64,000 nt of DNA from Vicinamibacterales bacterium (GCA_049679965.1 JBAUGX010000118.1:8064-72063); one strand, 5' to 3'. Counted from the first letter of the stretch, positions 12,124-36,217 are shown. Program-made: numbers and translations. The notes: generated from the sequence alone by a model not told the origin.

Positions 12124-13097
12124 GAGCCGGGATTTGGGATTCGGGATTCGGGAGTCGAGAGAAACTGGCGGAGCTTCAGCAGGCTGTCCATATCCTGCAC
12201 GTTCAACATCTTCACCTCGCGGCTGATGTCGCGCATCAGGCCGCTCAATACCTTGCCAGGCCCGACTTCGACGAAGGTCCGGTGGCCCTCTCGAACCAGC
12301 TTGTTCATCGAGTCTACCCACCGCACTGGACGCACGATCTGCTCAATGAGCGTCTCTCGAATCCGGTCGGGCTCGGTCGCGTAGGCGTCCGCGGTGACGT
12401 TTGCGATAACGGGCAACGCAGGAGGGGCAAGGGCGCAGGTCTCGAGCGCATGGCGCATAGGTGTCTTCGCGTCGGCCATGAACCGGCTGTGCCATGGCCC
12501 ACTGACTTTGAGCGCTATGGTCAACCGTGCACCCTTCTGCTTCGCCAACTCCGCGGCTTTCTGGAGCGCGTCGGTCTGACCGGTGAGGGCGACCTGCAGC
12601 GGAGAATTGTGATTGGCCACCTCGACAGACCCGACGTCCTTCACTTCCCCGCAGATTCTCGAGACGGTCTCGATATCGAGCCCAACAACGGCGAGCATGC
12701 CGCCTGGATTTCGCGTGGCTGCCTCCTGCATCGCACTCCCTCGGACCTGAACGAGCCGCATGGTGTCGGCAAATGACAGCACGCCGGCCGCGTGCAAGGC
12801 TGCGTATTCCCCGAGGCTATGCCCAGCGGCCGCGGACGGCACGACGCCTTCCTCACGCAGCACCTGCAGGCACGCAAGATTCACCAGTGTGATCGCAGGC
12901 TGCACGTTGTCGGTCTGAACGAGCGTCGGCTCAGGTCCTTCGAAGCACAGACGCCTCAGATCCTTCTTGATGAGATCGGATGCTTCGCCGAAGAGCGTCC
13001 TGACTGACGGATACGCGTCAAAGAAGGCCTTGCCCATGCCGACGGAGTGCGAGCCCTGGCCGGGAAATAAGAAGACGATATCCGGGTGGCCGGTCAC
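12120..13097 (-). CDS. fabD: malonyl-CoA:ACP transacylase
   Basis: FLFPGQGSHSVGMG, active-site GHSLGEYAALHAAG, and QPAITLVNLA. Confidence 0.95.
   Translation of the reverse strand: MTGHPDIVFLFPGQGSHSVGMGKAFFDAYPSVRTLFGEASDLIKKDLRRLCFEGPEPTLVQTDNVQPAITLVNLACLQVLREEGVVPSAAAGHSLGEYAALHAAGVLSFADTMRLVQVRGSAMQEAATRNPGGMLAVVGLDIETVSRICGEVKDVGSVEVANHNSPLQVALTGQTDALQKAAELAKQKGARLTIALKVSGPWHSRFMADAKTPMRHALETCALAPPALPVIANVTADAYATEPDRIRETLIEQIVRPVRWVDSMNKLVREGHRTFVEVGPGKVLSGLMRDISREVKMLNVQDMDSLLKLRQFLSTPESRIPNPGS
12129..12156. repeat. 7-bp tandem array GGGATTT GGGATTC GGGATTC GGGAGTC (G-quadruplex-type motif)
   Basis: Read directly from the sequence. It lies just after the HAD stop codon and inside the last about 12 codons of the fabD ORF. 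Confidence 0.9.
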
Positions 13098-13411
13098 TTC
13101 GGCCGCCGCTTACCGGCTGCCCGTTTGCCAAATCGCGCGCGCGGATCCTCGTGCTTCCCGCCAGGCCGCCAGTCCCGGCTACGCGCGGCGACGCCGGCTG
13201 GTGGCCGGCGTGTCTGCCGGGCCTGCCAGGAGGCGCGTTCTTCTTCTCGGGATTCCCACAGCTGGCCGCGGGCGAACCACTTCATCAGCACGTCGCTGTT
13301 CTTGCGGCGCAGCTGATGAAGGGTGGGCAGGAGCTCCTCGCGCTCGTGCGCGCGGAACGCCGTCGGCTTATGGTCGATGAGGATGGTCCAGTACGCGAAG
13401 CGCGGGGGCAC
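13094..13411 (-). CDS. hypothetical protein
   Basis: 105-aa ORF with strong GC at third codon positions. It overlaps the fabD start by 4 nt. No family recognised. Confidence 0.55.
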   Translation of the reverse strand: MPPRFAYWTILIDHKPTAFRAHEREELLPTLHQLRRKNSDVLMKWFARGQLWESREEERASWQARQTRRPPAGVAARSRDWRPGGKHEDPRARFGKRAAGKRRPK

Positions 13412-13416
13412 GTCCC

Positions 13417-14199
13417 CTATTGTGGCTCCATTGCACCCTGAAACGGAATCACCTGTCCGGGCAGCACGTCCGCATCGAACGTCAGCGGTTCAAATCCTTC
13501 CTCATGGATTTCGATGCGATGCCGGCCTGGCGCGAGCGACAGCGGCTGCATGTTCGACGAGTAATCCTCCACGAGTCCCATGTACCGACCATCGACGAAG
13601 ATCTCAGCCGTCGCCGGTGCGATGTCAAAGCTCAGGCCGCCGGCCGCACCGGGCACCGGTACTGGGGCGGCGTACGCGTAGGGGTAGTAGTAGACGGGAT
13701 AGGCGACCGGATACCCAACGAACAGTCTGAAGCCCAGGTTGAACCGAGGGCGGAACGAGTAATACGGGCGGTACACCGGTCTGGGTCCTCTGGGATCGAC
13801 GATACGCGGTGCGTAATAGCGGGGCGTGTGAACGTACGCACGAGGCGGAGCGGTGCGAGGGTACGACCGAGCGAACGTGCGAGGCGCCGGGGGGCGCGGT
13901 GCGAAGGTGCGCGGTGCGACGGCGCGCGGCGCTGGCTCGCTACGCTCGAACCGCGGCGCAGTGCGCGGTACGGCGACACCCGCTCTGGGCGAGGCATCGC
14001 GTCGCGCTTCCGGCTGCCGTGACGCTTGGGTCCGACCGCCACCTCGGCCAGCACTACGATCGTTACCGTTGCCGCGGCCTCGCGAGTCGCGATCTTGAGA
14101 GCCTCGATCGCGCTCGCCGCGCTGGGCGGCAACTGCTGGTCCGGCGGCGAGCGAGAGCACGACGAGCGTGAGCGGTGCGAAGGTGCGGATGCGATTCAT
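13417..14199 (-). CDS. secreted PEGA-domain protein with an Arg/Pro-rich low-complexity region
   Basis: Signal peptide MNRIRTFAPLTLVVLSLAAGPAVAA, repetitive APRTFAPRPPAPRTFA segment, and a C-terminal PEGA-like region (IFVDGRYMG ... LAPGRHRIEIHEEGFEP). Confidence 0.75.
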   Translation of the reverse strand: MNRIRTFAPLTLVVLSLAAGPAVAAQRGERDRGSQDRDSRGRGNGNDRSAGRGGGRTQASRQPEARRDASPRAGVAVPRTAPRFERSEPAPRAVAPRTFAPRPPAPRTFARSYPRTAPPRAYVHTPRYYAPRIVDPRGPRPVYRPYYSFRPRFNLGFRLFVGYPVAYPVYYYPYAYAAPVPVPGAAGGLSFDIAPATAEIFVDGRYMGLVEDYSSNMQPLSLAPGRHRIEIHEEGFEPLTFDADVLPGQVIPFQGAMEPQ

Positions 14200-14227
14200 A
14201 AGGCCTCCCAGGTAACGCGCCCCTTCC

Positions 14228-14242
14228 GCAACTGCCCTGCCA
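14228..14242 (-). promoter_or_regulatory. candidate sigma54 promoter TGGCAG-N5-TTGC for the PEGA gene
   Basis: The reverse complement reads TGGCAGGGCAGTTGC. It is 6 nt after the stop of the NtrC-type gene and about 29 nt before the ATG at 14199. A GGGAGG RBS lies in between. Confidence 0.55.
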
Positions 14243-14248
14243 ACCCTT

Positions 14249-15703
14249 CTAGCGAGCTTCTGGCCTGTTCTTGGGTATTTCGGGAGATGGCCGGCTGTCG
14301 ATGTCCGCAGGCGAGGACATCCGTTTGAGCTTTTCGACGAGCGTTGTCCGCTTGAGATTGAGCAACCTCGCCGCCTGTTCCCTGTTCCCGCCAGTTCGCT
14401 CCAGCGACCGCGCGATAAGGTCGCGCTCGATGTCGGCGACCAGGGCGCCCAGGTCGAGACCGTTCTCCGGCAGGGGGATCGAGGAAGGCAGTGCCGGTTC
14501 CTCCGCCTGCTGCAGCTCTGATGGCAGGTCCAGCACGTCGATCTGCGGTCGCCCGGCGCTGAGCGCCATGGCCCTCTCGATCGTGTTCTCGAGCTGACGA
14601 ACGTTGCCGGGCCACGAGTAGGCCATCAGCCGGCGCATCGCCTCCTGCGACACGGTAACGGGCCCGCGCGAGCTCCCAGCAGCGGTTTCGCCAGTGCGGA
14701 ATTTGTCCAGGAAGTGCTGCACGAGGAGCGGGATATCCTCTTTCCGTCCGCGCAGCGGCGGGATTCCCACGGGAATGACGTTAAGGCGGTAGAACAAGTC
14801 CTCGCGGAACTGGCCCTCGGCGACCATGCGCCCGAGGTCGCTGTTGGTGGCCGCGATCACTCGCACATCGACCTTCGTCGTGTGTGAGTCGCCCACTTTC
14901 TCGAACTCCCGCTCCTGGAGGACCCGAAGCAGCTTTGCCTGCAACGCGGAACTCATGGTTCCGACTTCGTCGAGGAACAGGGTTCCCTTGTGTGCCTGCT
15001 CGATGCGGCCCTGACGGTTGCCGATGGCGCCCGTGAACGCCCCGCGCACATGCCCGAACAGTTCCGCCTCGAGCAGCGTTTCGGGAATGGCGCTGCAGTT
15101 GATCGCCACGAAGCGATTCATGCGGCGCGGACTGTTGTGATGAATCGCGCGCGCGACGACTTCCTTGCCAGTCCCTGTCTCGCCGGTAATAAGGATGGTG
15201 CTGCTCGTCGGCGCGACCGTCTCAAGCAGCTGAAAGAGTCGCGACATCGCCCGGCCCTTGCCCACCACGCCTTCGAATCGGTACCGCTCTTCGAGCTGCG
15301 CGCGCAGATACGCGTTCTCTGACTGCAGCCGCCGCTGCTCGAGCGCCGAATCGAGCACGTGCAGCAATTCGTCGATTTGAAACGGCTTGTTGACGAAGTC
15401 CCACGCGCCGCGCTTGATGGCTTCGACAGCGTGCTTCACCGTTCCGTAGCCGGTGACCACGATGGCGATGATGTTGGGATACCGGCCGACGGCGGCGTCG
15501 ACCACCGCCGAGCCGTCAATCCCGGGCAGTCGCAGGTCGGTGACGATAATGTCGAACGCAAAATCAGCGAGACGAGCAAGCGCGGCCTCGCCCGACTCGG
15601 CCTGCTCGACTTGATAACCCCGGTCGGCAAGTTGTTCGGCGATGGCCTGTCGCAGCGGTACCTCGTCGTCGACCAGCAGCAGATGTTTAGAGGTGTCAGG
15701 CAT
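14249..15703 (-). CDS. sigma54-dependent response regulator (NtrC family: REC + AAA+ + Fis HTH)
   Basis: LLLVDDE ... [21 protein letters not shown], canonical [17 protein letters not shown], and C-terminal [18 protein letters not shown]. Confidence 0.95.
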
Positions 15704-15732
15704 TTAGGAGGCGCCAACATATTGACACAGAA

Positions 15733-15807
15733 GGTGGGATTGGGGGTTTGGGATTTGGGATTCGACCCCCAACTCCCGAATCCCTAATCCCCAATCCCAA
15801 TCCCACC
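15733..15807. repeat. imperfect palindrome built from GGGATTY heptamers (G-rich arm, about 10-bp centre, C-rich arm)
   Basis: GGTGGGATTGGGGGTTTGGGATTTGGGATTCG, then ACCCCCAACTC, then CGAATCCCTAATCCCCAATCCCAATCCCACC, in the divergent gap between the NtrC-type gene and the HTH gene. Confidence 0.9.
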
Positions 15808-15834
15808 GATAGTGTCCCTTGGAGGGAAGCTCCT

Positions 15835-16053
15835 GTGGAACGAAAAACGATTTCGATCATGAAGGCCTGTGAGACCGTCGGCGTCAGCCGGCGCACGATC
15901 TACAACTGGCTGGCGAGTGGCAAGATTGAATACGTGCGGACCGCGGGCGGCTCCGTGCGGATTTTCGTCGATTCGCTGTGGCGAGATGCGAACGATGCCA
16001 ACCGGCCCGCCGTGCAGTCGATGTGGCAGGTGGAAGGGCCGCACCAGGTCTAA
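15835..16053 (+). CDS. excisionase/MerR-type helix-turn-helix DNA-binding protein
   Basis: ISIMKACETVGVSRRTIYNWLASGKIEYVRTAGGSVRIF matches the excisionase-family HTH pattern. The start is uncertain (GTG 15835 or ATG 15859). The upstream part of the track ORF merely translates the heptamer array. Confidence 0.7.
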   Translation: MERKTISIMKACETVGVSRRTIYNWLASGKIEYVRTAGGSVRIFVDSLWRDANDANRPAVQSMWQVEGPHQV

Positions 16054-16307
16054 TGGCCCGGCCCTTCAGCGTCGAGGATCTCCTGGCACGGAGACCTATG
16101 GACGAATCTCAGGAACTGCACGCGCTCTTTCACCGCCTGAATAATCAGCTCGGTATCATCCTCGCGCACGCGGAGTTGCTCGAAGCGAAGGTGCCCGACG
16201 CCATGAACCGCGCGCGCGCCGGCCAGGTGGTGGCCAGCGCCCTCGAAGCCATGAACACCGCGAAGGAAATCCGCCGCGTCACGAATCCTCCAGCCGAATC
16301 TCGATAG
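16053..16307 (+). CDS. small stand-alone histidine-kinase DHp-like (H-box) protein, 84 aa
   Basis: The ATG overlaps the HTH stop (TAATG). LHALFHRLNNQLGIILAHAELLEAK resembles the HxxNNxLxxIxGxxELL phospho-acceptor helix. There is no ATPase domain. Confidence 0.55.
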   Translation: MARPFSVEDLLARRPMDESQELHALFHRLNNQLGIILAHAELLEAKVPDAMNRARAGQVVASALEAMNTAKEIRRVTNPPAESR

Positions 16308-16329
16308 CCCGAAAATTGTAAGCGAGTGT

Positions 16330-16371
16330 CAAATTATTGGCCTGAGCGTTGCTCAGATCGCCAATAATTTG
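16330..16371. other. nested perfect hairpin in an AT-rich spacer (terminator or protein-binding palindrome)
   Basis: CAAATTATTGG-C-CTGAGC-GTT-GCTCAG-ATCG-CCAATAATTTG, with an 11-bp outer stem and a 6-bp inner stem. It starts 22 nt after the DHp gene stop and is not followed by a T-tract. Confidence 0.4.
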
Positions 16372-16506
16372 GCGAAATTCACGCGACTGCACCTGCAACT
16401 CCGCCTGCCGCCTCGGACTGAACCGAGCCGCTAACGTTTTTAGAATTAACGGTCTACGAGGGAACAACGGACCCGTAGGCCGGTTTTGGTGCATCGGCTG
16501 AGCTGT

Positions 16507-16521
16507 TGGTATCGCCATTGC
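16507..16521 (+). promoter_or_regulatory. candidate sigma54 promoter TGGTAT-N5-TTGC upstream of the FliA-like sigma gene
   Basis: TGGTATCGCCATTGC lies 45 nt upstream of the ATG at 16566, which is preceded by a GAGGAG RBS. Confidence 0.4.
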
Positions 16522-16565
16522 GGTGTTGCGCACCGGCAGGCAGTAAGCCTGCGAGGAGAAGCAGC

Positions 16566-17486
16566 ATGCGCGTTCAGCCCGTCGCCGCCAGTCACACCCG
16601 TCGGATCGTCGCCAGCCTGCCGTTTGTCGAAGCCCTTGCTCGACGCATGGCCGCGACGATGCCGAATTCGATCGACGTCGGCGACCTCGTTCAGGATGGC
16701 GTCCTTGGCCTGATCGACGCCGTGCGGCGGTTCGACCAGGACCGCGGCATCAAGTTCGAGACGTTTGCAGAGAGGCGCGTCCGCGGCGCCATGATCGACG
16801 CACTGCGCCGCGATGCCTGGCCCCGCGGGGTTCGGCGCCAGCGGCGCGAGCTCGATGCGGCGCGAGAAGCGCTGCGCCGCGAGCTGGGCCACGAACCGTC
16901 GATGGCCGATCTCGCCGCCCGCGTGGGCTCCGACGAGAAGCGGCTGAGCCGCACGATCGTCCGCATCAATACTATCGAGTCGACCTCGCCGCTCGCCACG
17001 GGCGAACACATGGACGAGAACTCGCTGCCGCGGGTGCTGGTGCCGTCCGAGCCGGATTCCCCGCACAAGGCTTTTGAAAAGACGGAGACGCGCACTCGCG
17101 TGCGCGCTGCCATCCTGTCGCTGCCGGTGCGGGAGCGCAAGGTGATCAGTCTCTACTACTACGGCGAAGTGACGATGAAGGATATCGGGTCCGAAATCGG
17201 CGTCAACGAATCACGCGTCTCGCAGCTGCATGCTCGTGCGATCCGGCGCCTGCGTGACGCGCTCGGCGACATGAACCCGCAGCAGGCTGCCGAGGTTCGG
17301 CGCCAACTGGTCGCCTTCGCGTCGAGGAAACCCAAGATGGTCAAGGCCCAGCTGCCGACAGCGGAAACCGTGGCCTCACCGCACGGCGTGGTACTGCCGT
17401 ACAAACCGGCGGCCAGGCGCGGCGCTATGGCCCACGCGACACTCAAGGTCGGCCGTGCCCGGCAGGCTATCGCCGCGGCAAGATAG
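16566..17486 (+). CDS. sigma-70 family RNA polymerase sigma factor, FliA/WhiG (sigma-28) type, with about 70 aa C-terminal extension
   Basis: Region 2 is DLVQDGVLGLIDAVRRFDQDRGIKFETFAERRVRGAMIDALR. Region 4 is LPVRERKVISLYYYGEVTMKDIGSEIGVNESRVSQLHARAIRRLR. I prefer the ATG at 16566 with its RBS over 16506. Confidence 0.85.
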   Translation: MRVQPVAASHTRRIVASLPFVEALARRMAATMPNSIDVGDLVQDGVLGLIDAVRRFDQDRGIKFETFAERRVRGAMIDALRRDAWPRGVRRQRRELDAAREALRRELGHEPSMADLAARVGSDEKRLSRTIVRINTIESTSPLATGEHMDENSLPRVLVPSEPDSPHKAFEKTETRTRVRAAILSLPVRERKVISLYYYGEVTMKDIGSEIGVNESRVSQLHARAIRRLRDALGDMNPQQAAEVRRQLVAFASRKPKMVKAQLPTAETVASPHGVVLPYKPAARRGAMAHATLKVGRARQAIAAAR

Positions 17487-17494
17487 GAAAAGTC

Positions 17495-19111
<1,617 letters not shown>

Positions 19112-19189
19112 TCAGAACCCTAGCAGAGGTGGCAGATACCGCTTAGCTCAGCACCCAATAATCAGAAACCCTGAAACACTTCGCGCGGC

Positions 19190-19582
19190 ATGCCTGATGC
19201 AATCCAAAACCGCATGCCGGAAACCATTACGAGCTACCGTGACCTAGTCGTGTGGCAGAAAGGGATGGACCTCGCTGAGTGTGTGTTTCACGTGACGGCG
19301 AGGTTCCCGGACTCTGAACGATTCGGTCTCTCGACTCAGATGCGAAAGGCCGCTGTCTCGATACCATCAAACGTGGCAGAGGGACATCGGCATCGTCGAG
19401 CCAGCTACGTTCATCACGTCGTAATCGCGCTTGGGTCGCACGCAGAACTCGAAACGCAGGGGTTGCTCGCGCATCGGCTTGGATTCGTGAATGCGGCGAA
19501 TCTGGAGAAGTTCATCAGGCTCTCGACGCAGGTTGGCGAGCTTGCGCACGGTCTTCTGCGGTCGCTTGAAGCCCGCCCGTGA
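19190..19582 (+). CDS. four-helix-bundle protein (23S rRNA intervening-sequence protein / Avd-like family)
   Basis: SYRDLVVWQKGMDLAECVFHVTARFPDSERFGLSTQMRKAAVSIPSNVAEGH is the family signature. GC is lower than in the flanking DNA. Confidence 0.85.
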   Translation: MPDAIQNRMPETITSYRDLVVWQKGMDLAECVFHVTARFPDSERFGLSTQMRKAAVSIPSNVAEGHRHRRASYVHHVVIALGSHAELETQGLLAHRLGFVNAANLEKFIRLSTQVGELAHGLLRSLEARP

Positions 19583-19595
19583 GCCTGCACAGCTA

Positions 19596-19632
19596 GAATC
19601 CCCAAATCCCGAATCCCAAACCCCGAATCCCA
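19596..19632. repeat. GGGATTY-type heptamer array in inverted orientation (C-rich on the + strand)
   Basis: GAATC CCCAAAT CCCGAAT CCCAAAC CCCGAAT CCCA. It forms the right inverted arm and abuts the stop codon of the PCYCGC gene. Confidence 0.9.
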
Positions 19633-19633
19633 T

Positions 19634-24644: not shown

Positions 24645-24696
24645 CGACGGTCAGAGTACCACAGGGGTTCTGGAGGTACCAGAGCCCCTCAGCCCG

Positions 24697-26479: not shown

Positions 26480-27661
26480 TCAGATAATGCCGAGTTCGCT
26501 GCCGACCTTCTTGAACACGTCGAGGGCGAACTGCAGATCGGCGCGCGTGTGAGTGGCCGTCACGATCGTGCGAACGCGCGCTCTGCTGTGGGCCACCGTC
26601 GGGAACCCAATCCCCTGCGCGAAGACGCCTTCGGCAAACAGGCGATCCGACAACTTCATGGCCAAGGCACCGTGCCCTACGATGACCGGCGTGATCGGGC
26701 TCTCGCTCAGGCCGGTATTGAAGCCAAGCGCCGTCAGGCCGGCCTTGAAGAACCGGGTGTTCTCCCACAGCCGATCGACGATCTGCGGCTCTCCCTCGAG
26801 CACGTCGAGCGCTGCGATGCACGCAGCGGCCACGGCCGGCGGATGTGACGTCGAGAAGAGAAATGGCCGTGCCCTGTGGTGGAGAAACTCGACCAGCGCG
26901 CGGCTGCCGGCGACGTATCCCCCGAGCACGCCGATGGCCTTCGACAGCGTGCCGACCTGGATGTCGACCCGGCCGTGGAGGCCGAAATGGTCGATCGTCC
27001 CTCGACCCTGTTGCCCGAACACGCCGCTCGCATGCGCGTCGTCGACCATCATGATGGCGCCGAACGCTTCGGCGAGCGCGCACAGATCGGGCAACGCGCC
27101 GAGGTCGCCATCCATGCTGAACACGCCATCGGTGATGAGGAGCGTGCGTCCGTTCGCCGGAAGGCCGGCGAGAATCTTCCGCGCGGCAGCGACGTCTTTG
27201 TGCGCGAACACCTTGATGGTCGCTCGGCTCAGCCGGCAGCCGTCGATGATACTCGCGTGATTCAGCTCGTCGGAGACGACGATATCGTCCTTGGTGAGCA
27301 CCGCGGCGACCGTCCCGGCGTTGGCCGCGAATCCGCTCTGGAACACGACGGCGGCTTCGGTCTTCTTGAACGCCGCCAGCCGCCGCTCGAGCTCCATATG
27401 AATGGCCATCGTGCCGGCAATCGTGCGAACCGATCCTGAACCCACGCCGAACTGACGCGTCGCCTCCAGTGCCCGCTCGCGCAGTGTTGGGTGGGTGGTC
27501 AGGCCGAGGTAGTTGTTCGACGACAAGTTGACGACCTGGCGGTCGTCGAAGATCGCCCGTGGCCGCTGCTCACCCTGAAGGACGCGCAGGGGCCGATAGA
27601 GCCCCTGCGCCTTGAGCGTGTCGAGCTCGGTCGAGAGATATGCGAGTGGGTCTTGGCGCAT
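26480..27661 (-). CDS. kbl: glycine C-acetyltransferase / alpha-oxoamine synthase family (PLP)
   Basis: From the ATG at 27661: MRQDPLAYLSTELDTLKAQGLYRPLRVL ... NLSSNNYLGL ... DDAHASG ... GTLSKA (PLP Lys). The upstream part of the 527-aa track ORF overlaps the aminotransferase gene and is an artefact. Confidence 0.8.
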   Translation of the reverse strand: MRQDPLAYLSTELDTLKAQGLYRPLRVLQGEQRPRAIFDDRQVVNLSSNNYLGLTTHPTLRERALEATRQFGVGSGSVRTIAGTMAIHMELERRLAAFKKTEAAVVFQSGFAANAGTVAAVLTKDDIVVSDELNHASIIDGCRLSRATIKVFAHKDVAAARKILAGLPANGRTLLITDGVFSMDGDLGALPDLCALAEAFGAIMMVDDAHASGVFGQQGRGTIDHFGLHGRVDIQVGTLSKAIGVLGGYVAGSRALVEFLHHRARPFLFSTSHPPAVAAACIAALDVLEGEPQIVDRLWENTRFFKAGLTALGFNTGLSESPITPVIVGHGALAMKLSDRLFAEGVFAQGIGFPTVAHSRARVRTIVTATHTRADLQFALDVFKKVGSELGII

Positions 27662-27681
27662 GACTGCCGACTGACCGCCGA

Positions 27682-28902
27682 CTATCGTGCCAAGTACTCC
27701 GCCGTGAATTTCGCGACAAGGTCGTAAACCTCGCCGAGCTCCTCGAGAGGGGCGAGATACACGATGCGCAGATATCCGTCCTGGGGCGCTGTGCCGAATC
27801 CCGAGCCATAGACGGTCAGCACGCCGGTGGCGCGCAGCAGCGCGAGGACGTAGTCTTCGTCGGTACGACCCGGCGGCAGCGAGACGCGCGGCATCGCGTA
27901 GAAGGCCGCAGTCGGCGCAACGCAAGTGACGCCGGGCATGGCGTTCAACCGATCGACGGTCAACGCGGCGCGCGCCTTGAGCGCCGCGCGGAACGATACC
28001 TGATGGGATCGATCGCCGGTGAGCGCCGCAGCGACGGCGTACTGCATCGGCAGCGTGCTGCACAGCCGACCGTCGGCGAGCTTCGCAACCGCCTTCACGA
28101 AATCATTCAAGCGTGGCGAGCGGCCGATGGCCATCCAGCCAGTCCGCCAGCCCGGCGCGAGATACGCCTTCGACAGGCTGGAAAACGACACGATCGGGGC
28201 ATCCGGATCCAGGCTGCCGAGTGGTGCGACCGGGCCGTCGAATCCGATGTCACCGTAGACCTCGTCGGCGATGATGGGGAGCCCGTGGCGATCCGCGAAC
28301 TCGAGCAGCGCACGTCGCGTCGCGACCGAGTAGGTCGCGCCCGTCGGATTATTCGGGTCGATGACGACGAGCGCCCGCGTGGCCGGGGTCACGATGCTCC
28401 GGAGGTGATCGAGATCCGGCGCCCAGCCCTGACGAGGGTCGGTTCGATAGTACAGAGCGCGGGCGCCCAATCGGGCGATCACTGCTGTGTAAAGAGGATA
28501 GGTCGGCATCGGGACGAGTACGTCGCTGCCTTCGTCGGCCAGCGCCGCGAGCGCGAGATCGATGCCTTCAGACGTGCCGGCCGTCAGGAACACGCGGTCT
28601 GCCGAAACCGGAAACCCGGCCTTGGTGTACTCGGCGGCCACCGCTTCGCGCCCGGCCTCGATACCGGGCGATGGCCCGTAGCCGTTGTGCCCATCCCGCA
28701 AGGCGCGCTCGACGGCGGCGATGAGATGCGGCGGCGTCTTGAATCCGAAGGCGACCGGATCCCCGATGTTCAGATAGCGTACGCGAAGGCCTCCAGCCTC
28801 GACCTGTTTGGCCTCGCCGACGATGTTGCGGATCGCATATGTGAAGCGACTGACGCGCGCTGCGACAGGAATCACCGGAAAGGAAGCCTTCAACGCAGCC
28901 AC
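27682..28902 (-). CDS. class I/II PLP-dependent aminotransferase (alanine-aminotransferase-like)
   Basis: NIGDP, YGPSPG, VVIDPNNPTGA, and SFSSLSKAYLAPGWRTGW (PLP Lys). Confidence 0.85.
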   Translation of the reverse strand: MAALKASFPVIPVAARVSRFTYAIRNIVGEAKQVEAGGLRVRYLNIGDPVAFGFKTPPHLIAAVERALRDGHNGYGPSPGIEAGREAVAAEYTKAGFPVSADRVFLTAGTSEGIDLALAALADEGSDVLVPMPTYPLYTAVIARLGARALYYRTDPRQGWAPDLDHLRSIVTPATRALVVIDPNNPTGATYSVATRRALLEFADRHGLPIIADEVYGDIGFDGPVAPLGSLDPDAPIVSFSSLSKAYLAPGWRTGWMAIGRSPRLNDFVKAVAKLADGRLCSTLPMQYAVAAALTGDRSHQVSFRAALKARAALTVDRLNAMPGVTCVAPTAAFYAMPRVSLPPGRTDEDYVLALLRATGVLTVYGSGFGTAPQDGYLRIVYLAPLEELGEVYDLVAKFTAEYLAR

Positions 28903-28914: not shown

Positions 28915-28950
28915 CCGCGACTGCCGACTGCCGACTGCTGACTGCTGACT
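28915..28950. repeat. 7-bp tandem array CTGCCGA CTGCCGA CTGCTGA CTGCTGA
   Basis: Read directly from the divergent gap between the aminotransferase and VWA genes. A degenerate relative (GACTGCC GACTGAC CGCCGAC) lies at 27662-27684 between the aminotransferase and kbl. Confidence 0.9.
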
Positions 28951-29047
28951 CCTCCTCACCGTGTCATTCCTGCATCGACCGTGTGGGACTCACATGTTTG
29001 CGCGCTGTACAATCCCCCTAAATCATTGGTAGCATAGGACCATATAC

Positions 29048-30034: not shown

Positions 30035-30045
30035 GAGGATCCATC

Positions 30046-30744
30046 ATGTGGCGGAAACTATTCGTGGCAGTTCCTCTCGTGGCGTTGGCGATCGGTTCGA
30101 CCGCCTGCGCGTCCAAGGGGTTTGTGAGGACGAGCGTCGGCGATCTCAATAAGGAGCTCAGCACCAAGGTCGACTCGCTCGGCCGATCGATTGAAGACAC
30201 CCAGGAGCGCACGAGGGCCAACGAAGGACGTATTACCGAAGTCGATCAGAAGGCCAGCGCGGCTACCCAATCAGCCCAGCAGGCCAATACGGCGGCGGCT
30301 GCGGCGAACTCGACGGCGGTGGCGGCGCGCTCGGCCGCGACCGATGTCAATACCAAGGTCGACGTTCTCGATAAGTCAACCCGTCGCCTGGTGTACGAAG
30401 TGGTGCTGAACTCGGAGAACGGCAACTTCAAGTTCGGTCAGGCGAATCTGCCCGACGAGGTCAAGCAGAAGCTCGACGGAATCGTGCAGCAGCTCAAACA
30501 GGATCAGAAAAACGTGTTCATTGAGATCGAAGGACACACCGACAACGTGGGTCCCAAGGTCGTCAACGAAAAGGTTGGCCTGGAGCGCGCCGAGGCGGCG
30601 AAGCGGTATCTGTACGAACAGTTCCAGATCCCGCTGCACAAGATGAGCGTCATCAGCTTCGCGGACGCGAAGCCCGTGGCGCCGAACACGACGAAGGAAG
30701 GCCGCGCGCAGAATCGGCGAGTCGTGATCAAAGTACTCGCGTAG
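30046..30744 (+). CDS. OmpA-family lipoprotein (coiled-coil N-terminus, peptidoglycan-binding C-terminus)
   Basis: Lipobox LAIGSTAC, an Ala/Gln-rich coiled coil, and the OmpA_C motifs IEGHTDNVGP ... NEKVGLERAEAAKRYL ... NRRVVIKV. Confidence 0.9.
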   Translation: MWRKLFVAVPLVALAIGSTACASKGFVRTSVGDLNKELSTKVDSLGRSIEDTQERTRANEGRITEVDQKASAATQSAQQANTAAAAANSTAVAARSAATDVNTKVDVLDKSTRRLVYEVVLNSENGNFKFGQANLPDEVKQKLDGIVQQLKQDQKNVFIEIEGHTDNVGPKVVNEKVGLERAEAAKRYLYEQFQIPLHKMSVISFADAKPVAPNTTKEGRAQNRRVVIKVLA

Positions 30745-30750
30745 AAAGTT

Positions 30751-30785
30751 AGAACTAAGAACTAAGAACTAAGAACTAAGAACGA
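30751..30785. repeat. 7-bp tandem array AGAACTA x4 plus a degenerate fifth unit (AGAACGA)
   Basis: Read directly from the sequence, 6 nt after the OmpA-family stop codon. An inverted partial copy (CTTAGTTCTT) follows the terminator at about 30856-30866. Confidence 0.95.
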
Positions 30786-30798
30786 CTGGGAAGGCAAG

Positions 30799-30850
30799 AG
30801 GGCGAAGGACGCATTGTCCTTTCGCCCTTTCCTTTTTCCTTTTACATTTT
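30799..30850 (+). terminator. Rho-independent terminator
   Basis: Stem GGGCGAAGGAC, loop GCATT, stem GTCCTTTCGCCC (one bulge), followed by the T-rich run TTTCCTTTTTCCTTTTACATTTT. Confidence 0.75.
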
Positions 30851-30889
30851 GCCTTCTTAGTTCTTCCTTCCCCTGCTAGTCTCTTCGGT

Positions 30890-31273
30890 ATGGCGATCCG
30901 TACCGAGCTCAATCTGCGGCTTCCGAACAATCCCGGCGCGCTCGCTGGCGTCTGCCGCCTGCTGTCCGACGAGCGCGTGGGAATCCTGGCCATGTCGGTT
31001 GACCCTGCCGGCCACCTGCGTCTCGTCGTCGACAATCACGTCCACGGCGCAGCGACGCTGCGCGAACGGCATCATCAGGTTACTGTGCGCGACGTCATCG
31101 TGATGACGCTCTCCAACACCCCCGGCTCGCTCGCGCCCGCCCTGCGGCTGGTCGGCGACGCCAACGTCAACGTCGAATATGCGTACGGCGGCGCGGCCGA
31201 AGGCAGCCCCATGGCGACGGTCGTGCTCGGCGTTGACGACGCACAACGGGCCGCGGCGGCGGCGGGCGTGTGA
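30890..31273 (+). CDS. ACT-domain protein (two ACT repeats)
   Basis: The pattern LRLPNNPGALAGVCRLL is repeated as MTLSNTPGSLAPALRLV, typical of small amino-acid-binding ACT proteins. Confidence 0.7.
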   Translation: MAIRTELNLRLPNNPGALAGVCRLLSDERVGILAMSVDPAGHLRLVVDNHVHGAATLRERHHQVTVRDVIVMTLSNTPGSLAPALRLVGDANVNVEYAYGGAAEGSPMATVVLGVDDAQRAAAAAGV

Positions 31274-31302
31274 TTTCGCAATCTGCAATCTGAAATCTGC
31301 AA
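31274..31302. repeat. 7-bp tandem array ATCTGCA ATCTGAA ATCTGCA with a partial leading unit
   Basis: Read directly from the sequence, immediately after the ACT-gene stop codon. Confidence 0.85.
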
Positions 31303-31306
31303 GGTA

Positions 31307-31492
31307 ATGCGTCTCTATGTGGAGCCCATGGATGCCGTCGTGGTCGAAGTCGGCGCGGACGGCCGCGTCCGGCTCGAACACGAGGACTGGTCGCATCCGA
31401 CGCTCCAGGAGCGCCGCGCGATTCTCTATGCCGCCAAGAATGAGGTCGAGGCGCTGACCGAACTCATCGAGATACTGCAAAAGGATCGATAA
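31307..31492 (+). CDS. small hypothetical protein (61 aa) upstream of crcB
   Basis: Intact ORF ending 1 nt before crcB with acceptable GC3. No family recognised. Confidence 0.4.
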   Translation: MRLYVEPMDAVVVEVGADGRVRLEHEDWSHPTLQERRAILYAAKNEVEALTELIEILQKDR

Positions 31493-31493
31493 C

Positions 31494-31862
31494 ATGGCAT
31501 GGATCGCCGTCGCGATCGGCGGGGCCCTCGGATCGGCCGCGCGTCACTTCGTCAACCTCGAGGTCGCACGCGGGACGGGGAACGCGATCCCGTGGGCGAC
31601 CCTTGTCGTCAACGTCGTCGGGTGCATCGTTATCGGGGCGCTCGCCGGCCGGACCGCGGGCGGACATCTTCATCTGGCGCCGATCATGCGGACGTTTCTC
31701 CTTGTCGGCGTCTTGGGCGGATTTACGACGTTCTCCACCTTTGAGCTGGATACCTTCACACTCGGGCATGGCGGAAACCATGTCGCCGCCTTCTGGAACA
31801 TCGTCGGACAGGTCGGCCTCGGGCTCGGCGGCGTCTGGCTCGGCTACTACCTGGCCCTGTAA
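31494..31862 (+). CDS. crcB: fluoride efflux channel CrcB
   Basis: Four TM segments, plus GGALGSAARH, WATLVVNVVGC and GVLGGFTTFSTF. Confidence 0.9.
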   Translation: MAWIAVAIGGALGSAARHFVNLEVARGTGNAIPWATLVVNVVGCIVIGALAGRTAGGHLHLAPIMRTFLLVGVLGGFTTFSTFELDTFTLGHGGNHVAAFWNIVGQVGLGLGGVWLGYYLAL

Positions 31863-31880
31863 GTCCTTTCCATCGAAGGG

Positions 31881-31957
31881 CAACCACGATGCCACCAAGA
31901 GCACGAGGATCATTACTGGTTTCGTGTATCTTCGTGGTCGTCGTGTCTTCGTGGTTG
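31881..31957. repeat. long imperfect inverted repeat (about 30-bp arms, 23/30 pairing by eye, 17-nt loop)
   Basis: CAACCACGATGCCACCAAGAGCACGAGGAT pairs with ATCTTCGTGGTCGTCGTGTCTTCGTGGTTG, between crcB and the SDR gene. Confidence 0.7.
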
Positions 31958-31969
31958 GCGGGTTCCTGA

Positions 31970-32710
31970 ATGGATCTTCAAGACAAAGTCGCGCTGATCA
32001 CTGGCGCCAAGCGCATCGGGATGGTCGTGGCCGCTGAGCTGGCCGCGCGCGGTGTGGACGTGGCGCTCGGCTACGCGCGGTCGCGGGCCGAAGCCGAACA
32101 GGGCGCTGCGAAGGTCCGGGGGGCGGGCCGGCGGGCGGCCGTCATTCAAGCCGATCTCTCGCGACCTGAGGGATGCGATGGCCTCGTTTCCGCCGCAGTC
32201 CAGGCGCTCGGGCGGCTCGACATCCTGATCAACATGGCGTCGGTCTTCGCCGAACGGCCGTTTGACGCGCTGACGGTCGCCGACTGGGACGCCACCATGC
32301 ATGTCGATCTGCGCGCGGCCTTTCTCTGCGCGCGGAGTGCCGTGCCGCATATGCGCAAGCAGGGCGGCGGCCGGATCATCAACTTCAGCGATTGGACGGC
32401 AAAGAGCGGCCGCCCGCGTTATCGCGGGTACCTTCCGTACTATGTCGCCAAGAGCGGCGTGATCGCCTTGACCGAAGTACTGGCCCTCGAGCTCGCGTCA
32501 GACGGGATTCTCGTCAACGCCATCGCCCCCGGGCCGATCCTGGCCCCGCCAGGCACGACCGATGACGAGTCTCTGGCGGTGGAGCAGGCAACCCCGCTCG
32601 GCCGTTGGGGAGGCGAGGTCGAGATCGCGAAAGCCGTCCTGGCGCTCCTCGACGGCGATTTCATCACGGGCGAGACGCTGCGCGTCGATGGCGGCCGTCA
32701 CCTGAAGTAG
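31970..32710 (+). CDS. short-chain dehydrogenase/reductase (SDR)
   Basis: ALITGAKRIGMVVA (TGxxxGxG-like), NMAS, and catalytic YYVAK. Confidence 0.85.
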   Translation: MDLQDKVALITGAKRIGMVVAAELAARGVDVALGYARSRAEAEQGAAKVRGAGRRAAVIQADLSRPEGCDGLVSAAVQALGRLDILINMASVFAERPFDALTVADWDATMHVDLRAAFLCARSAVPHMRKQGGGRIINFSDWTAKSGRPRYRGYLPYYVAKSGVIALTEVLALELASDGILVNAIAPGPILAPPGTTDDESLAVEQATPLGRWGGEVEIAKAVLALLDGDFITGETLRVDGGRHLK

Positions 32711-32731
32711 TGAAGGAGTAAGTCTTGTACA

Positions 32732-34108
32732 ATGCGAAATTCGATGGCCTCCCTGACGTTCCTCGGCGCCGCCGGCACCGTCACGGGTTCGAAGCATCTG
32801 CTCGATCTCGGCGACCGCCGGATTCTCGTCGACTGCGGGATGTTTCAGGGTCTCAAGGAACTGCGGCTTCGCAACTGGACTCCGTTTCCGATCGATCCGG
32901 CGCGCGTTGATGCGGTCATTCTCACGCACGCGCACCTGGATCACTGCGGTCAGTTGCCTCGTCTGGTCGCGCAAGGCTATCGCGGGCGCATCTTCTGCAC
33001 GCCGGGCACGCGCGATCTGTGCACCCTCGTACTCCCGGACTCAGCGCGACTTCAGGAAGAGGACGCTCGACAGGCCAACAAGCATGGCTACTCGAAGCAC
33101 CATCCGGCCGAGCCTCTCTACACGTCGGTCGATGCCGCGCGTGCGTTGAGCCTGCTGCAGCCGGTTGGCTACAACCGGCCCGTTCCCGTCGTGCCAGGCG
33201 TCGAAGTCGAATTTATCAACGCCGGTCATCTGCTCGGGTCGGCGTACGCGCGCGTGACGGTCGGTCAGCGGACGCTGCTCTTTGGCGGCGACCTCGGACG
33301 CTACGGCCGGCCCGTGCTGCCCGATCCGGCGCCGGTCGATGCCGCAGATGTGCTGCTCGTCGAGTCCACCTACGGCGATCGCCTCCACGAGCCGGACGAT
33401 GACGGCACACGCCTGGCGAAGATCGTGAGCGAGACCATCGCGGGCGGTGGGAAGGTCATCATTCCGTCATTCGCCATCGGCCGCGTCGAGGAAGTTCTCT
33501 ACTGGCTGAAGCGGCTCGAAGAAGAACGTCGCATTCCTGTCGTCCCGGTGTACATCGACAGTCCGATGGCCGCCGGCGCTCTGCAGTTCTACCTGGGCCG
33601 GCTGAATGAGCTCGATCCGGCCGACCTGCGCGCCTTCTGCACCCGCCACCTGGTGAAGGTCGCCTCGGTGGAGGAGTCCAAAGGCCTCACGGCCTCCAAG
33701 ACCCCGTCAATCGTGATCGCCGCGAGCGGAATGGCTACCGGAGGCCGCGTGCTCCATCATCTGGAGGCGGCCCTGCCCGATCCGCGCAACACCGTGCTGT
33801 TTGTCGGCTATCAGGCGGCTGGCACCCGCGGTCGCCACCTGTGCGATGGAGCCAAACAGGTGAAGATGCACGGCCGGATGGTGCCGGTGGCGGCACGCGT
33901 CGAGCGGCTCGACTCGATGTCGGCGCACGCCGATGCGGGCGAGATCATGCGCTGGCTGTCGGGTTTTTCCCGGGCTCCCGCCACGACCTACCTCGTCCAC
34001 GGCGAGCCGCCGGGGCTCGAGGGGCTCGCCGCACGCATTCAGTCCGACAAGGGCTGGCCCGTGCACATCGCCAAACATCTTGAAAAAGTGGAACTGGACC
34101 TGGGATAA
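32732..34108 (+). CDS. MBL-fold beta-CASP hydrolase (RNA-metabolising metallo-beta-lactamase type)
   Basis: LTFLGAAGTVTGSK, ILVDCGMFQG, LTHAHLDHCG and ESTYGDR, with a C-terminal beta-CASP His motif region (MSAHAD). Confidence 0.85.
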   Translation: MRNSMASLTFLGAAGTVTGSKHLLDLGDRRILVDCGMFQGLKELRLRNWTPFPIDPARVDAVILTHAHLDHCGQLPRLVAQGYRGRIFCTPGTRDLCTLVLPDSARLQEEDARQANKHGYSKHHPAEPLYTSVDAARALSLLQPVGYNRPVPVVPGVEVEFINAGHLLGSAYARVTVGQRTLLFGGDLGRYGRPVLPDPAPVDAADVLLVESTYGDRLHEPDDDGTRLAKIVSETIAGGGKVIIPSFAIGRVEEVLYWLKRLEEERRIPVVPVYIDSPMAAGALQFYLGRLNELDPADLRAFCTRHLVKVASVEESKGLTASKTPSIVIAASGMATGGRVLHHLEAALPDPRNTVLFVGYQAAGTRGRHLCDGAKQVKMHGRMVPVAARVERLDSMSAHADAGEIMRWLSGFSRAPATTYLVHGEPPGLEGLAARIQSDKGWPVHIAKHLEKVELDLG

Positions 34109-34116
34109 GGCTGCGG

Positions 34117-34152
34117 TAGAGTACGTGGCGTCCGGCTTCAGCCGGACCGTGA
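34117..34152. repeat. REP-like hairpin element (single-hairpin copy)
   Basis: GTACGTGGCGTCCGGCTTCAGCCGGACCGTGATC has an 8-bp perfect stem (GTCCGGCT / AGCCGGAC). It is near-identical to the first half of the element inside copA at 49979-50034. Confidence 0.8.
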
Positions 34153-34157
34153 TCTGT

Positions 34158-36191
34158 ATGATGAAAAGGCTTGCCACCGTCATGACCATTGTCGGAACCG
34201 TTGCCTGCGGAAGCGGCGACACCGCGAAGACGACGACCCCAGCGCCCTCGGCGGCACCAGCGGCGGAGCGTACGTATCTGCTCGAGCGCGTCGACGAAGC
34301 CGCGGTGGTGCAGCTCTACGCGGACGGATTCAGCGCCCTGCCACTCAGGGACAAGACGCTCGTGTGGCACCTCTACCAGGCGGCGCTTGCCGGCCGCGAC
34401 ATCTATTACGACCAGAAGTACGGGCCGAGCCTCGAGATGCGCGACGTACTTGAGGCGATCATTGCGCACCCGCAGGGGATCGAGAAGGCGACGCTCGACG
34501 AGATCACGCGCTACACCAAGCTCTTCTGGATTAACACCGGCCCCCACAACAATCTCACCGCGAGAAAGTTCGTGCTCCAGTGCACTCCCGAGGCGTTTGC
34601 CGCCGCGGCGCATGCCGCCGATCGGGCAGGCGCGACCCTTGCGCTCAGGAACGGCGAAACGCTCGACCGGCTGCTGGCGCGCCTCCAGCCGGCGTTCTTC
34701 GATCCGGACGTCGATTCAATCGTCACGAACAAGACGCCGCCGGCCGGCAAGGACATCCTGACGGCGAGCTCCAACAACCTGTACGTGGGCCTGTCGATGA
34801 AGGACCTCGACGGGTTCCGTGAGAAGAGCCCCCTCAACTCGCGATTGGTGAAGAGAAACGGCGCGATTGTCGAGGAGGTGTACCGGGTCGGTGGCCGGTA
34901 CGGCTCGCAGATCTCGGCCATCATCACGCATCTCCAGGACGCCATCCCGTACGCCACCGAGCCGATGGCGGCCGCGCTTCGCGCGCTCATCACGTTCTAC
35001 CAGTCGGGCGACACGAAGGATCGCGAGGCGTACGACATCGCATGGGTCAGAGACAAAGCCTCGCCCGTGGACACCATCAACGGCTTTGTCGAGGTCTATC
35101 TCGACGCCCGCGGCATCAAGGGCGCCTGGGAAGGGCTCGTCTTTTATGTGAACCCGGAGAAGACGTCCAACATCCAGAAGCTGGCCGCCAACGCACAGTG
35201 GTTCGAAGACCGGATGCCCTGGGACCAGAAGTACAAGAAAGAGGGCGTGCAGGGCATCACGGCCAATGCCATCGACGTGGTGATCGAGACGGGCGATTCG
35301 GGTCCGGTGACGCCGGTGGGCATCAACCTCCCGAACGATCAGATGGTCCGCGAGCGCTTCGGCAGCAAGTCCGTGCTGCTGTCCAACGTGAGCGAAGCCT
35401 ACGACAAGTCCACGCTCCCGGAGTTCCGCACCGAATTCGCGTGGACACCCGACGAAGTGGCGCGCACGTCGACATGGGGTGCGTCTGCCGGCGAGCTGAC
35501 GACCAACATGCACGAGGTGATCGGACACGCCTCCGGCAAAATCGCCGAGCGGCTCAACGGCAACCCGCAGGCCGTGCTGAAAGAGCAGTTCTCGGCGCTC
35601 GAGGAGGCGCGCGCGGATCTTGTCGCGCTCTACTTCCTCCCCGATGCGAAGCTTGTCGAGCTCGGTATTCTGGCGAGGGAGGATCAGGACGAGATCGTGC
35701 GGACGGAGTACGAGGCCTACGCGCGCAACGCCCTCGTCCAGCTGCGGCGTATCCGCCAGGGAACGCAGATCGAAGAAGATCACATGCGGAACCGACAGAT
35801 GATCGTGCGCTGGCTGATGGCGAACACCAAGGCCATCGACGTGCCGACCCGAGACGGGAAGACGTACTACGTCATGACCGACGTCAAGGCGTTTCACGAG
35901 GGCGTCGGGCGTCTGCTCGCCGAGGTCCAGCGCATCAAGGGCGAGGGCGACTACGCGGCGGCGAAACAGTTGTTTGAAACCTACGGGGTTCACTTCGATG
36001 CCAGGCTGCGGGACGAAGTCGTGGCGCGGGTCGAGAGACTGCACCTGCCGTCGTACACCGGCTTCGTCATGCCGAAGCTCGAACCGGTCACGAACGCCTC
36101 GGGCGAGATCACCGACGTGAAGGTGTCGTATCCGCTGGATTTCACCAAGCAGATGCTGGAGTACTCGGCCGCGACCCGCGCCTTCCGGTAA
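34158..36191 (+). CDS. M49-family dipeptidyl-peptidase III-like lipoprotein
   Basis: From the ATG at 34158 there is a lipobox (MMKRLATVMTIVGTVAC). Zinc motifs HEVIGH and EEARAD are present. The upstream part of the 752-aa track ORF overlaps the MBL gene and the REP element. Confidence 0.8.
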   Translation: MMKRLATVMTIVGTVACGSGDTAKTTTPAPSAAPAAERTYLLERVDEAAVVQLYADGFSALPLRDKTLVWHLYQAALAGRDIYYDQKYGPSLEMRDVLEAIIAHPQGIEKATLDEITRYTKLFWINTGPHNNLTARKFVLQCTPEAFAAAAHAADRAGATLALRNGETLDRLLARLQPAFFDPDVDSIVTNKTPPAGKDILTASSNNLYVGLSMKDLDGFREKSPLNSRLVKRNGAIVEEVYRVGGRYGSQISAIITHLQDAIPYATEPMAAALRALITFYQSGDTKDREAYDIAWVRDKASPVDTINGFVEVYLDARGIKGAWEGLVFYVNPEKTSNIQKLAANAQWFEDRMPWDQKYKKEGVQGITANAIDVVIETGDSGPVTPVGINLPNDQMVRERFGSKSVLLSNVSEAYDKSTLPEFRTEFAWTPDEVARTSTWGASAGELTTNMHEVIGHASGKIAERLNGNPQAVLKEQFSALEEARADLVALYFLPDAKLVELGILAREDQDEIVRTEYEAYARNALVQLRRIRQGTQIEEDHMRNRQMIVRWLMANTKAIDVPTRDGKTYYVMTDVKAFHEGVGRLLAEVQRIKGEGDYAAAKQLFETYGVHFDARLRDEVVARVERLHLPSYTGFVMPKLEPVTNASGEITDVKVSYPLDFTKQMLEYSAATRAFR

Positions 36192-36217
36192 CGACCAACG
36201 ACTAACGTCTGACGACC
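36190..36217. repeat. 7-bp tandem array AACGACC AACGACT AACGTCT GACGACC
   Basis: Read directly from the sequence. It spans the convergent junction of the peptidase gene and the methyltransferase gene, covering the last codons of the latter. Confidence 0.8.

Follow-up and report, generated by a model that had tools for sequence, protein, structure and literature searches.

Heptanucleotide tandem arrays at persistent intergenic sites in a Vicinamibacterales bacterium and its relatives

The stretch of DNA analysed here, referred to as a whole as the window, comprises 64,000 nt from a Vicinamibacterales bacterium (GCA_049679965.1 JBAUGX010000118.1:8064-72063) and carries short tandem arrays of 7-nt units in the spacers between its genes. 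The arrays belong to the heptanucleotide simple-sequence class, called short tandemly repeated repetitive (STRR) sequences in cyanobacteria and long simple sequence repeats (LSSRs) in general. They are a new lineage and new units of a known repeat class, and so are far less novel than was supposed in an earlier reading made by a model from the sequence alone (the sequence-only reading). What is new is that the array sites persist among relatives while the unit, the copy number and even the period (7 to 8) change; that many lineages carry different units past the OmpA gene yet keep a long hairpin around the terminator; and that (GGGATTY)3 occurs in many phyla. In addition, inverted heptamer arrays, with the purine-/G-rich arm first, nearly always surround genes of the PF05635/TIGR02436 family ('23S rRNA intervening sequence', IVP), in the window and in about 20 other cases from five phyla.

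Period-7 arrays in the window

Tandem Repeats Finder (TRF) was run on the window, counting rows with at least three copies, and 200 dinucleotide-preserving shuffles served as the null. Period 7 gave 12 rows, against a shuffle mean of 0.41 and maximum of 4, and the counts for the other periods from 4 to 12 matched the shuffle expectation. The excess of period 7 is clear and no other period is raised, so the core claim of the sequence-only reading, that units of unrelated sequence share a strict 7-nt period, stands; each array was also checked by reading the sequence itself. Two of the rows (13894 and 13909) are part of a coding 15-nt repeat of a different kind and are not genuine arrays. Arrays occur at about 10 per 64 kb and are 3-6 units long, and several unrelated unit families (GGGATTY, CTGCCGA, AGAACTA, GCAATCT and AACGACC) are found in the one genome. 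Two degenerate traces had also been proposed. That at 27662, with about 2.5 GACTGCC units, is counted as real because its orthologue in a syntenic relative (L127, see below) is an array of 5.6 units, and the GGGATTY trace at 296-315 consists of about two degenerate units that are present but not significant alone.

Gene calls were taken from assemblies carrying the same proteins, with Pfam assignments added, for positions 3297-50226, of which 5.9% is intergenic. All of the genuine arrays lie in spacers or extend into the codons at the beginning or end of a gene, at 1-16 nt from stop or start codons. Among the spacers of 10 nt or more between these positions, roughly one in three contains a periodic array. 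Some spacers are made almost wholly of array (27662-27681, 31274-31306 and 19583-19633). The sequence-only reading placed the arrays at gene ends; they do occupy short spacers and touch stop codons, but they are not specific to 3′ ends, as three sites are convergent, three divergent and four co-directional.

Arrays 12128, 19596 and 36190 lie between convergent genes. The first (CGGGATT ×4.3 by TRF, 12128-12157) is a GGGATTY array of about four units with four G3 tracts (12124-12157, plus strand) between an NT5C-like gene (plus) and a FabD-like gene (minus). It begins 1-6 nt past the stop codon of the former and encodes the last ~11 codons (LPNPNPNPGS*) of the latter. The second is a C-rich arm (RAATCCC ×5, plus strand; GAATCCC ×5.0 by TRF, 19596-19632) that fills the spacer between the IVP and PCYCGC genes. 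The third and weakest array (AACGACC-like ×4.3, 73% matches, 36190-36219, plus strand) covers both stop codons of an M49 peptidase gene (plus) and a methyltransferase gene (minus, at 36202), and encodes the C-terminal tail of the methyltransferase.

In divergent (promoter, 5′) regions are found arrays 15735/15768, 19049 and 28918. The inverted pair at 15735-15805, in the NtrC|HTH_17 spacer, has a G-rich arm (TGGGATT ×4.0, 15735-15762) and a C-rich arm (CCCAAT(C) ×5.7, 15768-15805). The G-rich GGGATTY arm upstream of the IVP gene was reported by TRF as GGGATTT ×3.4 at 19056-19079 and extends by eye over 19049-19081 (plus strand). The CTGCCGA/CTGCTGA array (CGACTGC ×4.7, 96% matches, 28918-28950, plus strand) lies in the aminotransferase|VWA spacer, 16 nt upstream of a minus-strand start codon.

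The co-directional sites are 27662, 30751, 31278 and an octamer-like hairpin at 31881-31957. The degenerate GACTGCC array (27661-27683, plus strand) makes up the entire 20-nt spacer between two aminotransferase genes. The AGAACTA array (×4.7, 100% matches, 30751-30783, plus strand) starts 7 nt past the OmpA stop codon and provides the 5′ arm of a long hairpin, and the GCAATCT array (×3.6, 31278-31302, plus strand) fills a 33-nt spacer that leads from an ACT-domain gene to a 61-aa open reading frame (ORF). The hairpin at 31881-31957, missed by the sequence-only reading, is degenerate with a period of about 8 nt (..CACG units) and lies between crcB and a short-chain dehydrogenase/reductase (SDR) gene.

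Persistence of sites and turnover of units

The syntenic relative L127, with about 80% nucleotide identity to the window, keeps arrays at the same sites in altered form. Site 27662 is the 5.6-unit array already mentioned, site 28918 has about 3.5 units against 4.7 in the window, and the array at 36190 is partly conserved. At 31278, the heptamer GCAATCT of the window corresponds to an octamer array (CTGCCATC ×3, L127 11153-11176) in which the first unit is CTGCAATC; a single base seems to have been inserted and then homogenised through the array, so that period 7 became period 8. Two further L127 arrays, at 4428 and 4474, fall in a spacer whose counterpart in the window (24645-24696) is without one. 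At the crcB/SDR site, relatives carry clean AAACCACG octamer arrays and their complement as inverted pairs (L130 9850-9947; L127 12501-12524), which makes period 8 a second, minor register in the clade.

The region 3′ of the OmpA gene was compared over the first 70 nt past the stop codon in 56 non-redundant relatives, with protein identities of 56-88%. The mean self-identity of these sequences peaks at lag 7 (0.389) and lag 14 (0.359), with other lags at 0.26-0.32. Their units differ by lineage, and at least 10 are represented (AGAACTA, AAAGTTA-type, CAGTCAG, TCAAGTC, GGGATTC, TAGTCGA, CAGTCAT, CGACTGT and others). The downstream arm complements the upstream arm lineage by lineage, giving hairpin z-scores of -3.3 to -10.7 in 14 lineages of unrelated sequence. 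In the nearest relatives (L127, L128, L129 and L203), the four exact AGAACTA units of the window are represented by a degenerate, 7-periodic array of the AAAGTTA type, and a recent re-amplification of one unit in the window would fit this pattern. The arrays are long-lived features of their sites, in which the sequence turns over and the period and the complementarity of the arms are kept, and this points to selection on structure and not on sequence.

On a shorter time scale the arrays are stable. Thirteen metagenome contigs from several samples, 99.89-100% identical to the window, align without a gap anywhere, arrays included. At this level of divergence the arrays are thus not hypervariable, although assemblies can hide minor copy-number variants, and the differences in copy number that the sequence-only reading envisaged were not seen among these contigs. 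SPAdes and Logan contigs stop exactly at arrays (28918/28940, 30780 and ~19137), two metagenome contigs break at the 28918 array, and most contigs with homologues of the IVP gene are only 0.5-1.5 kb long. That contigs stop exactly at these positions indicates that heptamer arrays fragment short-read assemblies. Soil Acidobacteriota, which form a major uncultured group, show the phenomenon prominently, with a third or so of the spacers occupied and assemblies broken.

Hairpins and quadruplex motifs

The sequence-only reading held that several arrays form inverted pairs able to fold into long hairpins, and folding bore this out at two places. The region 15725-15815 folds at -51.5 kcal/mol (z -5.9), with a loop of 13 nt in the 15735/15768 hairpin, and the values for the region past the OmpA gene (30745-30880) are -45.1 kcal/mol and z -4.1. 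In the latter, the AGAACTA array forms the 5′ arm and is followed by an inner terminator-like hairpin (GGGCGAAGGAC / GTCCTTTCGCCC) with a T-rich 7-periodic tail (30800-30843, plus strand, from direct reading and folding; TTTCCTT ×4.0 by TRF at 30828-30855). The inverted partner of the AGAACTA array, TTCTTAGTTCTTCC (30854-30867, plus strand), lies downstream of the T tract. The third pair is more widely spaced: its 32-nt arms (19049-19080 and 19600-19631) are 88% complementary and 519 nt apart.

The quadruplex motif (G3+N1-7 ×4) is present in all five GGGATTY arrays, which account for all but one of the six motifs of this kind in the window, where 2.8 would be expected. The non-G unit families of the window are incapable of forming G-quadruplexes.

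A PF05635/TIGR02436 gene between inverted arrays

The inverted arrays 19049 and 19596 enclose a gene (19190-19582, plus strand) for a four-helix-bundle protein of the IVP family. Its product matches PF05635 with an E-value of 4.7e-28 and TIGR02436 with 90.6 bits (cut-off 24), and the closest solved structure is that of XCC0516 of Xanthomonas (PDB 2GSC). The gene order around it, EamA-PCYCGC-IVP-HK (histidine kinase), also occurs in a metagenome-assembled genome named 'Vicinamibacterales bacterium' and supports a host of this order as the probable source. Five acidobacterial orthologues (L214 and L218-L221) are also enclosed by inverted arrays. At the PCYCGC-IVP-HK locus, the ORF is opposite to the orientation seen in the window in L214, L219 and L221 and the same in L218, with the flanking arms fixed. 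An ORF found in either orientation between the same neighbours fits a segment that was either inverted, by recombination between the inverted arrays, or inserted twice.

The other family members in the fetched loci all have a purine-/G-rich heptamer array, then the ORF, then a complementary array, an architecture found in Gallionella, Xanthomonas codiaei (unit GGGGACC) and Sulfurimonas (L024 3982-4432; L079 5207-5647; L102 2122-2572). Members on plasmids come almost only from cyanobacteria, plus Gemmatirosa. Of 14 plasmid copies (L222-L235), 11-12 lie between inverted heptamer arrays whose unit changes from copy to copy, a further copy is flanked on either side by direct heptamer arrays, and two have a downstream array only, beside an insertion sequence. 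The cassettes on cyanobacterial plasmids lie within operons, for instance at cas6/cas4, at cas10/cmr3 and between the subunits of ribonucleotide reductase. The control was a 50-kb segment of a Nostoc plasmid, holding 48 genes and some 15 heptamer arrays, in which the PF05635-family gene alone is enclosed by an inverted pair. Taken together, the enclosed genes span Acidobacteriota, Beta-/Gammaproteobacteria, Campylobacterota, Cyanobacteria and Gemmatimonadota. A literature search found no description of the heptamer-array nature of the flanks of PF05635 genes, and the association provides a new handle on both the repeats and an uncharacterised protein family.

The 23S rRNA intervening sequences (IVSs) of Leptospira and Coxiella can carry an ORF inside a stem that is cut by RNase III; the cutting of rRNA intervening-sequence stems by this enzyme was reportedly described by Ralph and McClelland in 1993. 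Like the ORF-bearing IVSs, the cassette in the window has a PF05635-family ORF within flanking inverted repeats able to form a stem. Unlike them, it lies outside rRNA, between protein-coding genes, and its arms are heptamer tandem arrays.

A perfect TATAAT (19038-19043, minus strand) adjoins the 19049 array, about 55 nt upstream of the ATG of the histidine-kinase gene at 18984, and a C-rich array followed by TATAAT is also present in L214, L219 and L221. The automatic call for the histidine-kinase gene starts at 19096, reading through the 19049 array, and this start is probably wrong. A sigma-54 promoter upstream of the IVP gene was considered by eye and dropped, as the spacing is wrong for one.

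Distribution in relatives and other phyla

The set of relatives (316 kb) was fetched by way of the OmpA protein and is therefore not biased towards arrays. Its non-redundant arrays of at least three copies number 43 for period 7, in 24 unit classes, and 18, 11 and 8 for periods 8, 9 and 6, respectively. Certain unit families (AATCCGC, AATCTGC, ACTGCCG and AATCCCG) recur within the clade.

A scan for (GGGATTY)3 with one genome per species (GTDB) gave at least 120 stretches amounting to 897 kb, and the window was not among the matches listed. Those listed come from Acidobacteriota (including Vicinamibacterales), Lysobacterales/Xanthomonadaceae, Planctomycetota, Cyanobacteria, Bacteroidota, Chloroflexota and others. 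The same matches contain about 113 further heptamer arrays, of about 80 other unit classes; periods 6, 8 and 9 account for 41, 21 and 31 arrays, respectively. Unit counts of the G-rich arrays in this set are skewed by the three-unit seed and were not used to assess a preference for four units.

Inverted pairs among the matches listed have the G-rich arm first in a ratio of 34:10 (2:0 in the window). A telomerase-like 'end-healing' origin of this order was not adopted, because the order is not absolute and non-G units share the architecture. Also among the matches listed, several phyla have 'empty' pairs with a core of 65-100 nt that contains a GC-rich terminator-like hairpin and then a T tract (L008, L033, L037, L088, L098, L107 and L119), the same layout as the OmpA 3′ region of the window. 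Most inverted pairs are empty, so the PF05635 cassette does not explain most arrays. Paired arrays usually bracket an intrinsic terminator, which offers a concrete model that can be tested, that of a fail-safe terminator or an RNase III stem.

Relation to known repeats

STRR heptanucleotide sequences of heterocystous cyanobacteria (Calothrix, Nostoc and Anabaena) were reportedly described in 1990. The arrays of the window resemble them in having tandem 7-nt units, in the presence of several unrelated families per genome, and in their intergenic position. They differ from STRR sequences in the strict sense in that the host is probably a member of the Vicinamibacterales and not a heterocystous cyanobacterium, the units are distinct from those of STRR1-3, and each array is short, with 3-6 units. 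The STRR-like label given by the sequence-only reading is thus apt as to unit length, multiple families and intergenic location, but the class had already been described outside the cyanobacteria. No paper on such arrays in Acidobacteriota was found in the literature search, which is not proof of absence.

The recognition that heptanucleotide arrays outnumber all other long simple repeats in many bacteria dates from 2007. According to the summaries in PMC4679880 and PMC4692102, Mrazek et al. (2007) found that heptanucleotides are the largest class of long simple repeats in most genomes and are particularly frequent in the large GC-rich genomes of non-pathogens; they suggested that the polymerase contacts about 7 nt of DNA, a length at which slippage would be favoured. 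The LSSRs (5-11-nt units; Mrazek, Guo and Shah 2007) are, in these summaries, like the present arrays in the predominance of heptamers; the persistence of sites with turnover of units and the hairpin architecture seen here go beyond what the summaries contain. The sequence-only reading suggested a common 7-nt mechanism that acts regardless of sequence, and period 7 does hold across the 24 unit classes of the relatives, but the slippage idea had already been published (Mrazek 2007).

The closest counterparts of the GGGATTY family are the G-rich repeats of Rehm et al. (2015; PMC4692102), GGGAATC in Xanthomonas and GGGGA(C/T)T in Nostoc. These show a preference for four units, form convergent inverted pairs, are found up to 50 bp from ORFs and across stop codons, occur at the same sites with different lengths between species, and fold into G-quadruplexes in vitro, with no link to phase variation. 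The GGGATTY arrays share with them a heptamer unit containing a G3 tract, an array length of about four units (four or more G3 tracts), the pairing of convergent inverted arrays and the placement at ORF ends and across stop codons. Sites kept at differing lengths between related species and the lack of a link to phase variation are common to both as well, and point by point the arrays of the window correspond to the published class. The unit here is GGGATT(C/T) and not GGGNATC, and it is present in many Lysobacterales, Acidobacteriota, Planctomycetota and others among the matches listed; the window also has the non-G families, for which a quadruplex is out of the question. The TAACTGA arrays of marine Beggiatoaceae, some cyanobacteria and Bacteroidetes (MacGregor 2015; PMC4679880) lie upstream of start codons and are likewise short intergenic heptamer arrays (2-6 copies), often abutting start codons and scattered across phyla. 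Unlike them, with their one dominant unit and rare related heptamers, the present arrays include many coexisting units. Repetitive extragenic palindromes and bacterial interspersed mosaic elements (REP/BIME) are similar in being intergenic, found at 3′ ends, hairpin-forming and disruptive to short-read assembly. They are conserved imperfect palindromes of 20-40 nt spread by REP-associated tyrosine transposases (RAYTs), whereas the arrays are 7-nt tandem units of many sequences and no RAYT was seen.

Origin and retention of the arrays

The explanation that we favour, and consider probable, is that the arrays arise by slippage or template switching and are retained as nucleic-acid structure, in the form of stem extensions around terminators. 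Arrays would be born and remodelled during replication, with an intrinsic preference or footprint of about 7 nt, and would survive only where the reading frame is irrelevant. They would be kept as suppliers of structure, the pairs lengthening the stem around an intrinsic terminator, and the complementarity of the arms may be maintained by arm-to-arm copying (quasi-palindrome template switching) or by selection. Properly terminated RNA would end past the 5′ arm and the inner hairpin, and read-through RNA would form a long duplex, a possible substrate of RNase III. The G3N4 family (GGGATTY) might additionally form G-quadruplexes, and the 19049/19600 pair may enclose its four-helix-bundle gene as the 23S rRNA intervening sequences enclose theirs.

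In its favour are the excess of period 7 in the window, in the relatives and in other phyla, the restriction to spacers, the persistence of sites with turnover relative to L127, the lag-7 signal and the hairpins of unrelated sequence at the OmpA 3′ end, the terminator-like cores of the empty pairs, the quadruplex motifs of the GGGATTY arrays, the order of the arms and the agreement with the published Xanthomonas and Nostoc repeats. Several points weigh against this explanation. The terminator, RNase III and G-quadruplex roles are ones that we infer from the layout of the sequences. The array hairpins, including that of OmpA, were not picked up by a simple terminator scan. Arrays 12128, 28918, 31278 and 36190 are unpaired and do not fold significantly, and a terminator role would make no sense for the three arrays in divergent promoter regions. 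Slippage alone leaves unexplained why the period is 7, why the same few units are found at many loci per genome and why GGGATTY is spread across phyla.

The arrays could instead be a neutral mutational by-product, with slippage making functionless 7-nt duplications that persist under weak selection. The >100 unrelated unit classes, the occurrence of arrays in all spacer types, their running into the ends of ORFs, and gain or loss relative to L127 (the arrays at 4428 and 4474, and the empty spacer of the window) would all be expected on that account. We nevertheless think it rather unlikely, as the sites persist down to ~60-70% OmpA protein identity, paired arms stay complementary despite replacement of their sequence, the order of arms is skewed (34:10 among the matches listed) and the same few units are found at many loci. 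Recurrence of a few unit families in the clade (AATCCGC, AATCTGC, ACTGCCG and AATCCCG), the five GGGATTY arrays within 8 kb of the window and the presence of (GGGATTY)3 in many phyla might suggest platforms for a DNA- or RNA-binding protein with a 7-nt register (for example, of the S1, Csp or CsrA type), an idea published for the TAACTGA repeats of Beggiatoaceae (PMC4679880). A sequence-specific binder would not tolerate the exchange of one unit for unrelated units at one orthologous site, however, and with positions that span promoters to 3′ untranslated regions and no candidate protein identified, such platforms are very unlikely. Phase-variable contingency loci, which would switch neighbouring genes through copy number, are hardly credible. 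Tandem repeats are a classical substrate for switching and arrays 19049, 28918 and 15735 are in promoter/5′ regions, but the 13 contigs, with identities of 99.89-100%, have no array indel, the genes next to the arrays are housekeeping genes, many of the arrays come after stop codons, and Rehm et al. concluded that there is no such link in Xanthomonas (PMC4692102).

The arrays might also be the ends or docking hairpins of a mobile IVS-like cassette with a PF05635/TIGR02436 gene, the pairs without an ORF being empty or decayed copies. The IVP gene of the window and its orthologues, flanked by inverted GGGATTY arrays with the ORF in either orientation, are compatible with this, as are the like architecture in Gallionella, Xanthomonas, Sulfurimonas and 11-12 of the 14 cyanobacterial/Gemmatimonadota plasmid copies, the placement of cassettes inside operons, and the Nostoc plasmid, where one gene of 48 (IVP) in 50 kb is enclosed by an inverted pair. 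We regard it as quite doubtful, given that most arrays and most pairs have no PF05635 gene, that unpaired arrays exist, that there is no transposase or recombinase, and that the arm sequences vary by copy and so are not conserved element termini; the ORFs may merely insert into, or be tolerated in, the loops of pre-existing hairpins. A broader version, speculative and rather unlikely in our view, would have the inverted arrays as cis-acting stems of a widespread IVS-like cassette system, with small Avd-like PF05635/TIGR02436 genes that reside in, enter or invert within the hairpins in at least five phyla and with the upkeep of complementary arms tied to the cassettes or to RNase III-type processing. 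If true, it would connect a defined gene family with the STRR puzzle, now 35 years old.

Other features of the window

The coding repeat excluded from the array count is a 15-nt (five-codon) repeat (×5.3, 13850-13929) in the N-terminal half of the ORF for a PEGA-domain protein (13417-14199, minus strand), for which gene callers differ in length (119 and 260 aa). Rfam and tRNA scans of the window gave no matches, and there is no rRNA in it; no fluoride riboswitch was found at the Rfam threshold anywhere in the window, including upstream of crcB. The 61-aa ORF that precedes crcB (fluoride channel) has no family match (31307-31862). A cluster at 42505-47833 encodes cytochrome c, Rieske, cytochrome b and multihaem cytochrome proteins and an outer-membrane porin of the MtrB/PioB type, which suggests an extracellular electron-transfer module in a probable acidobacterium.

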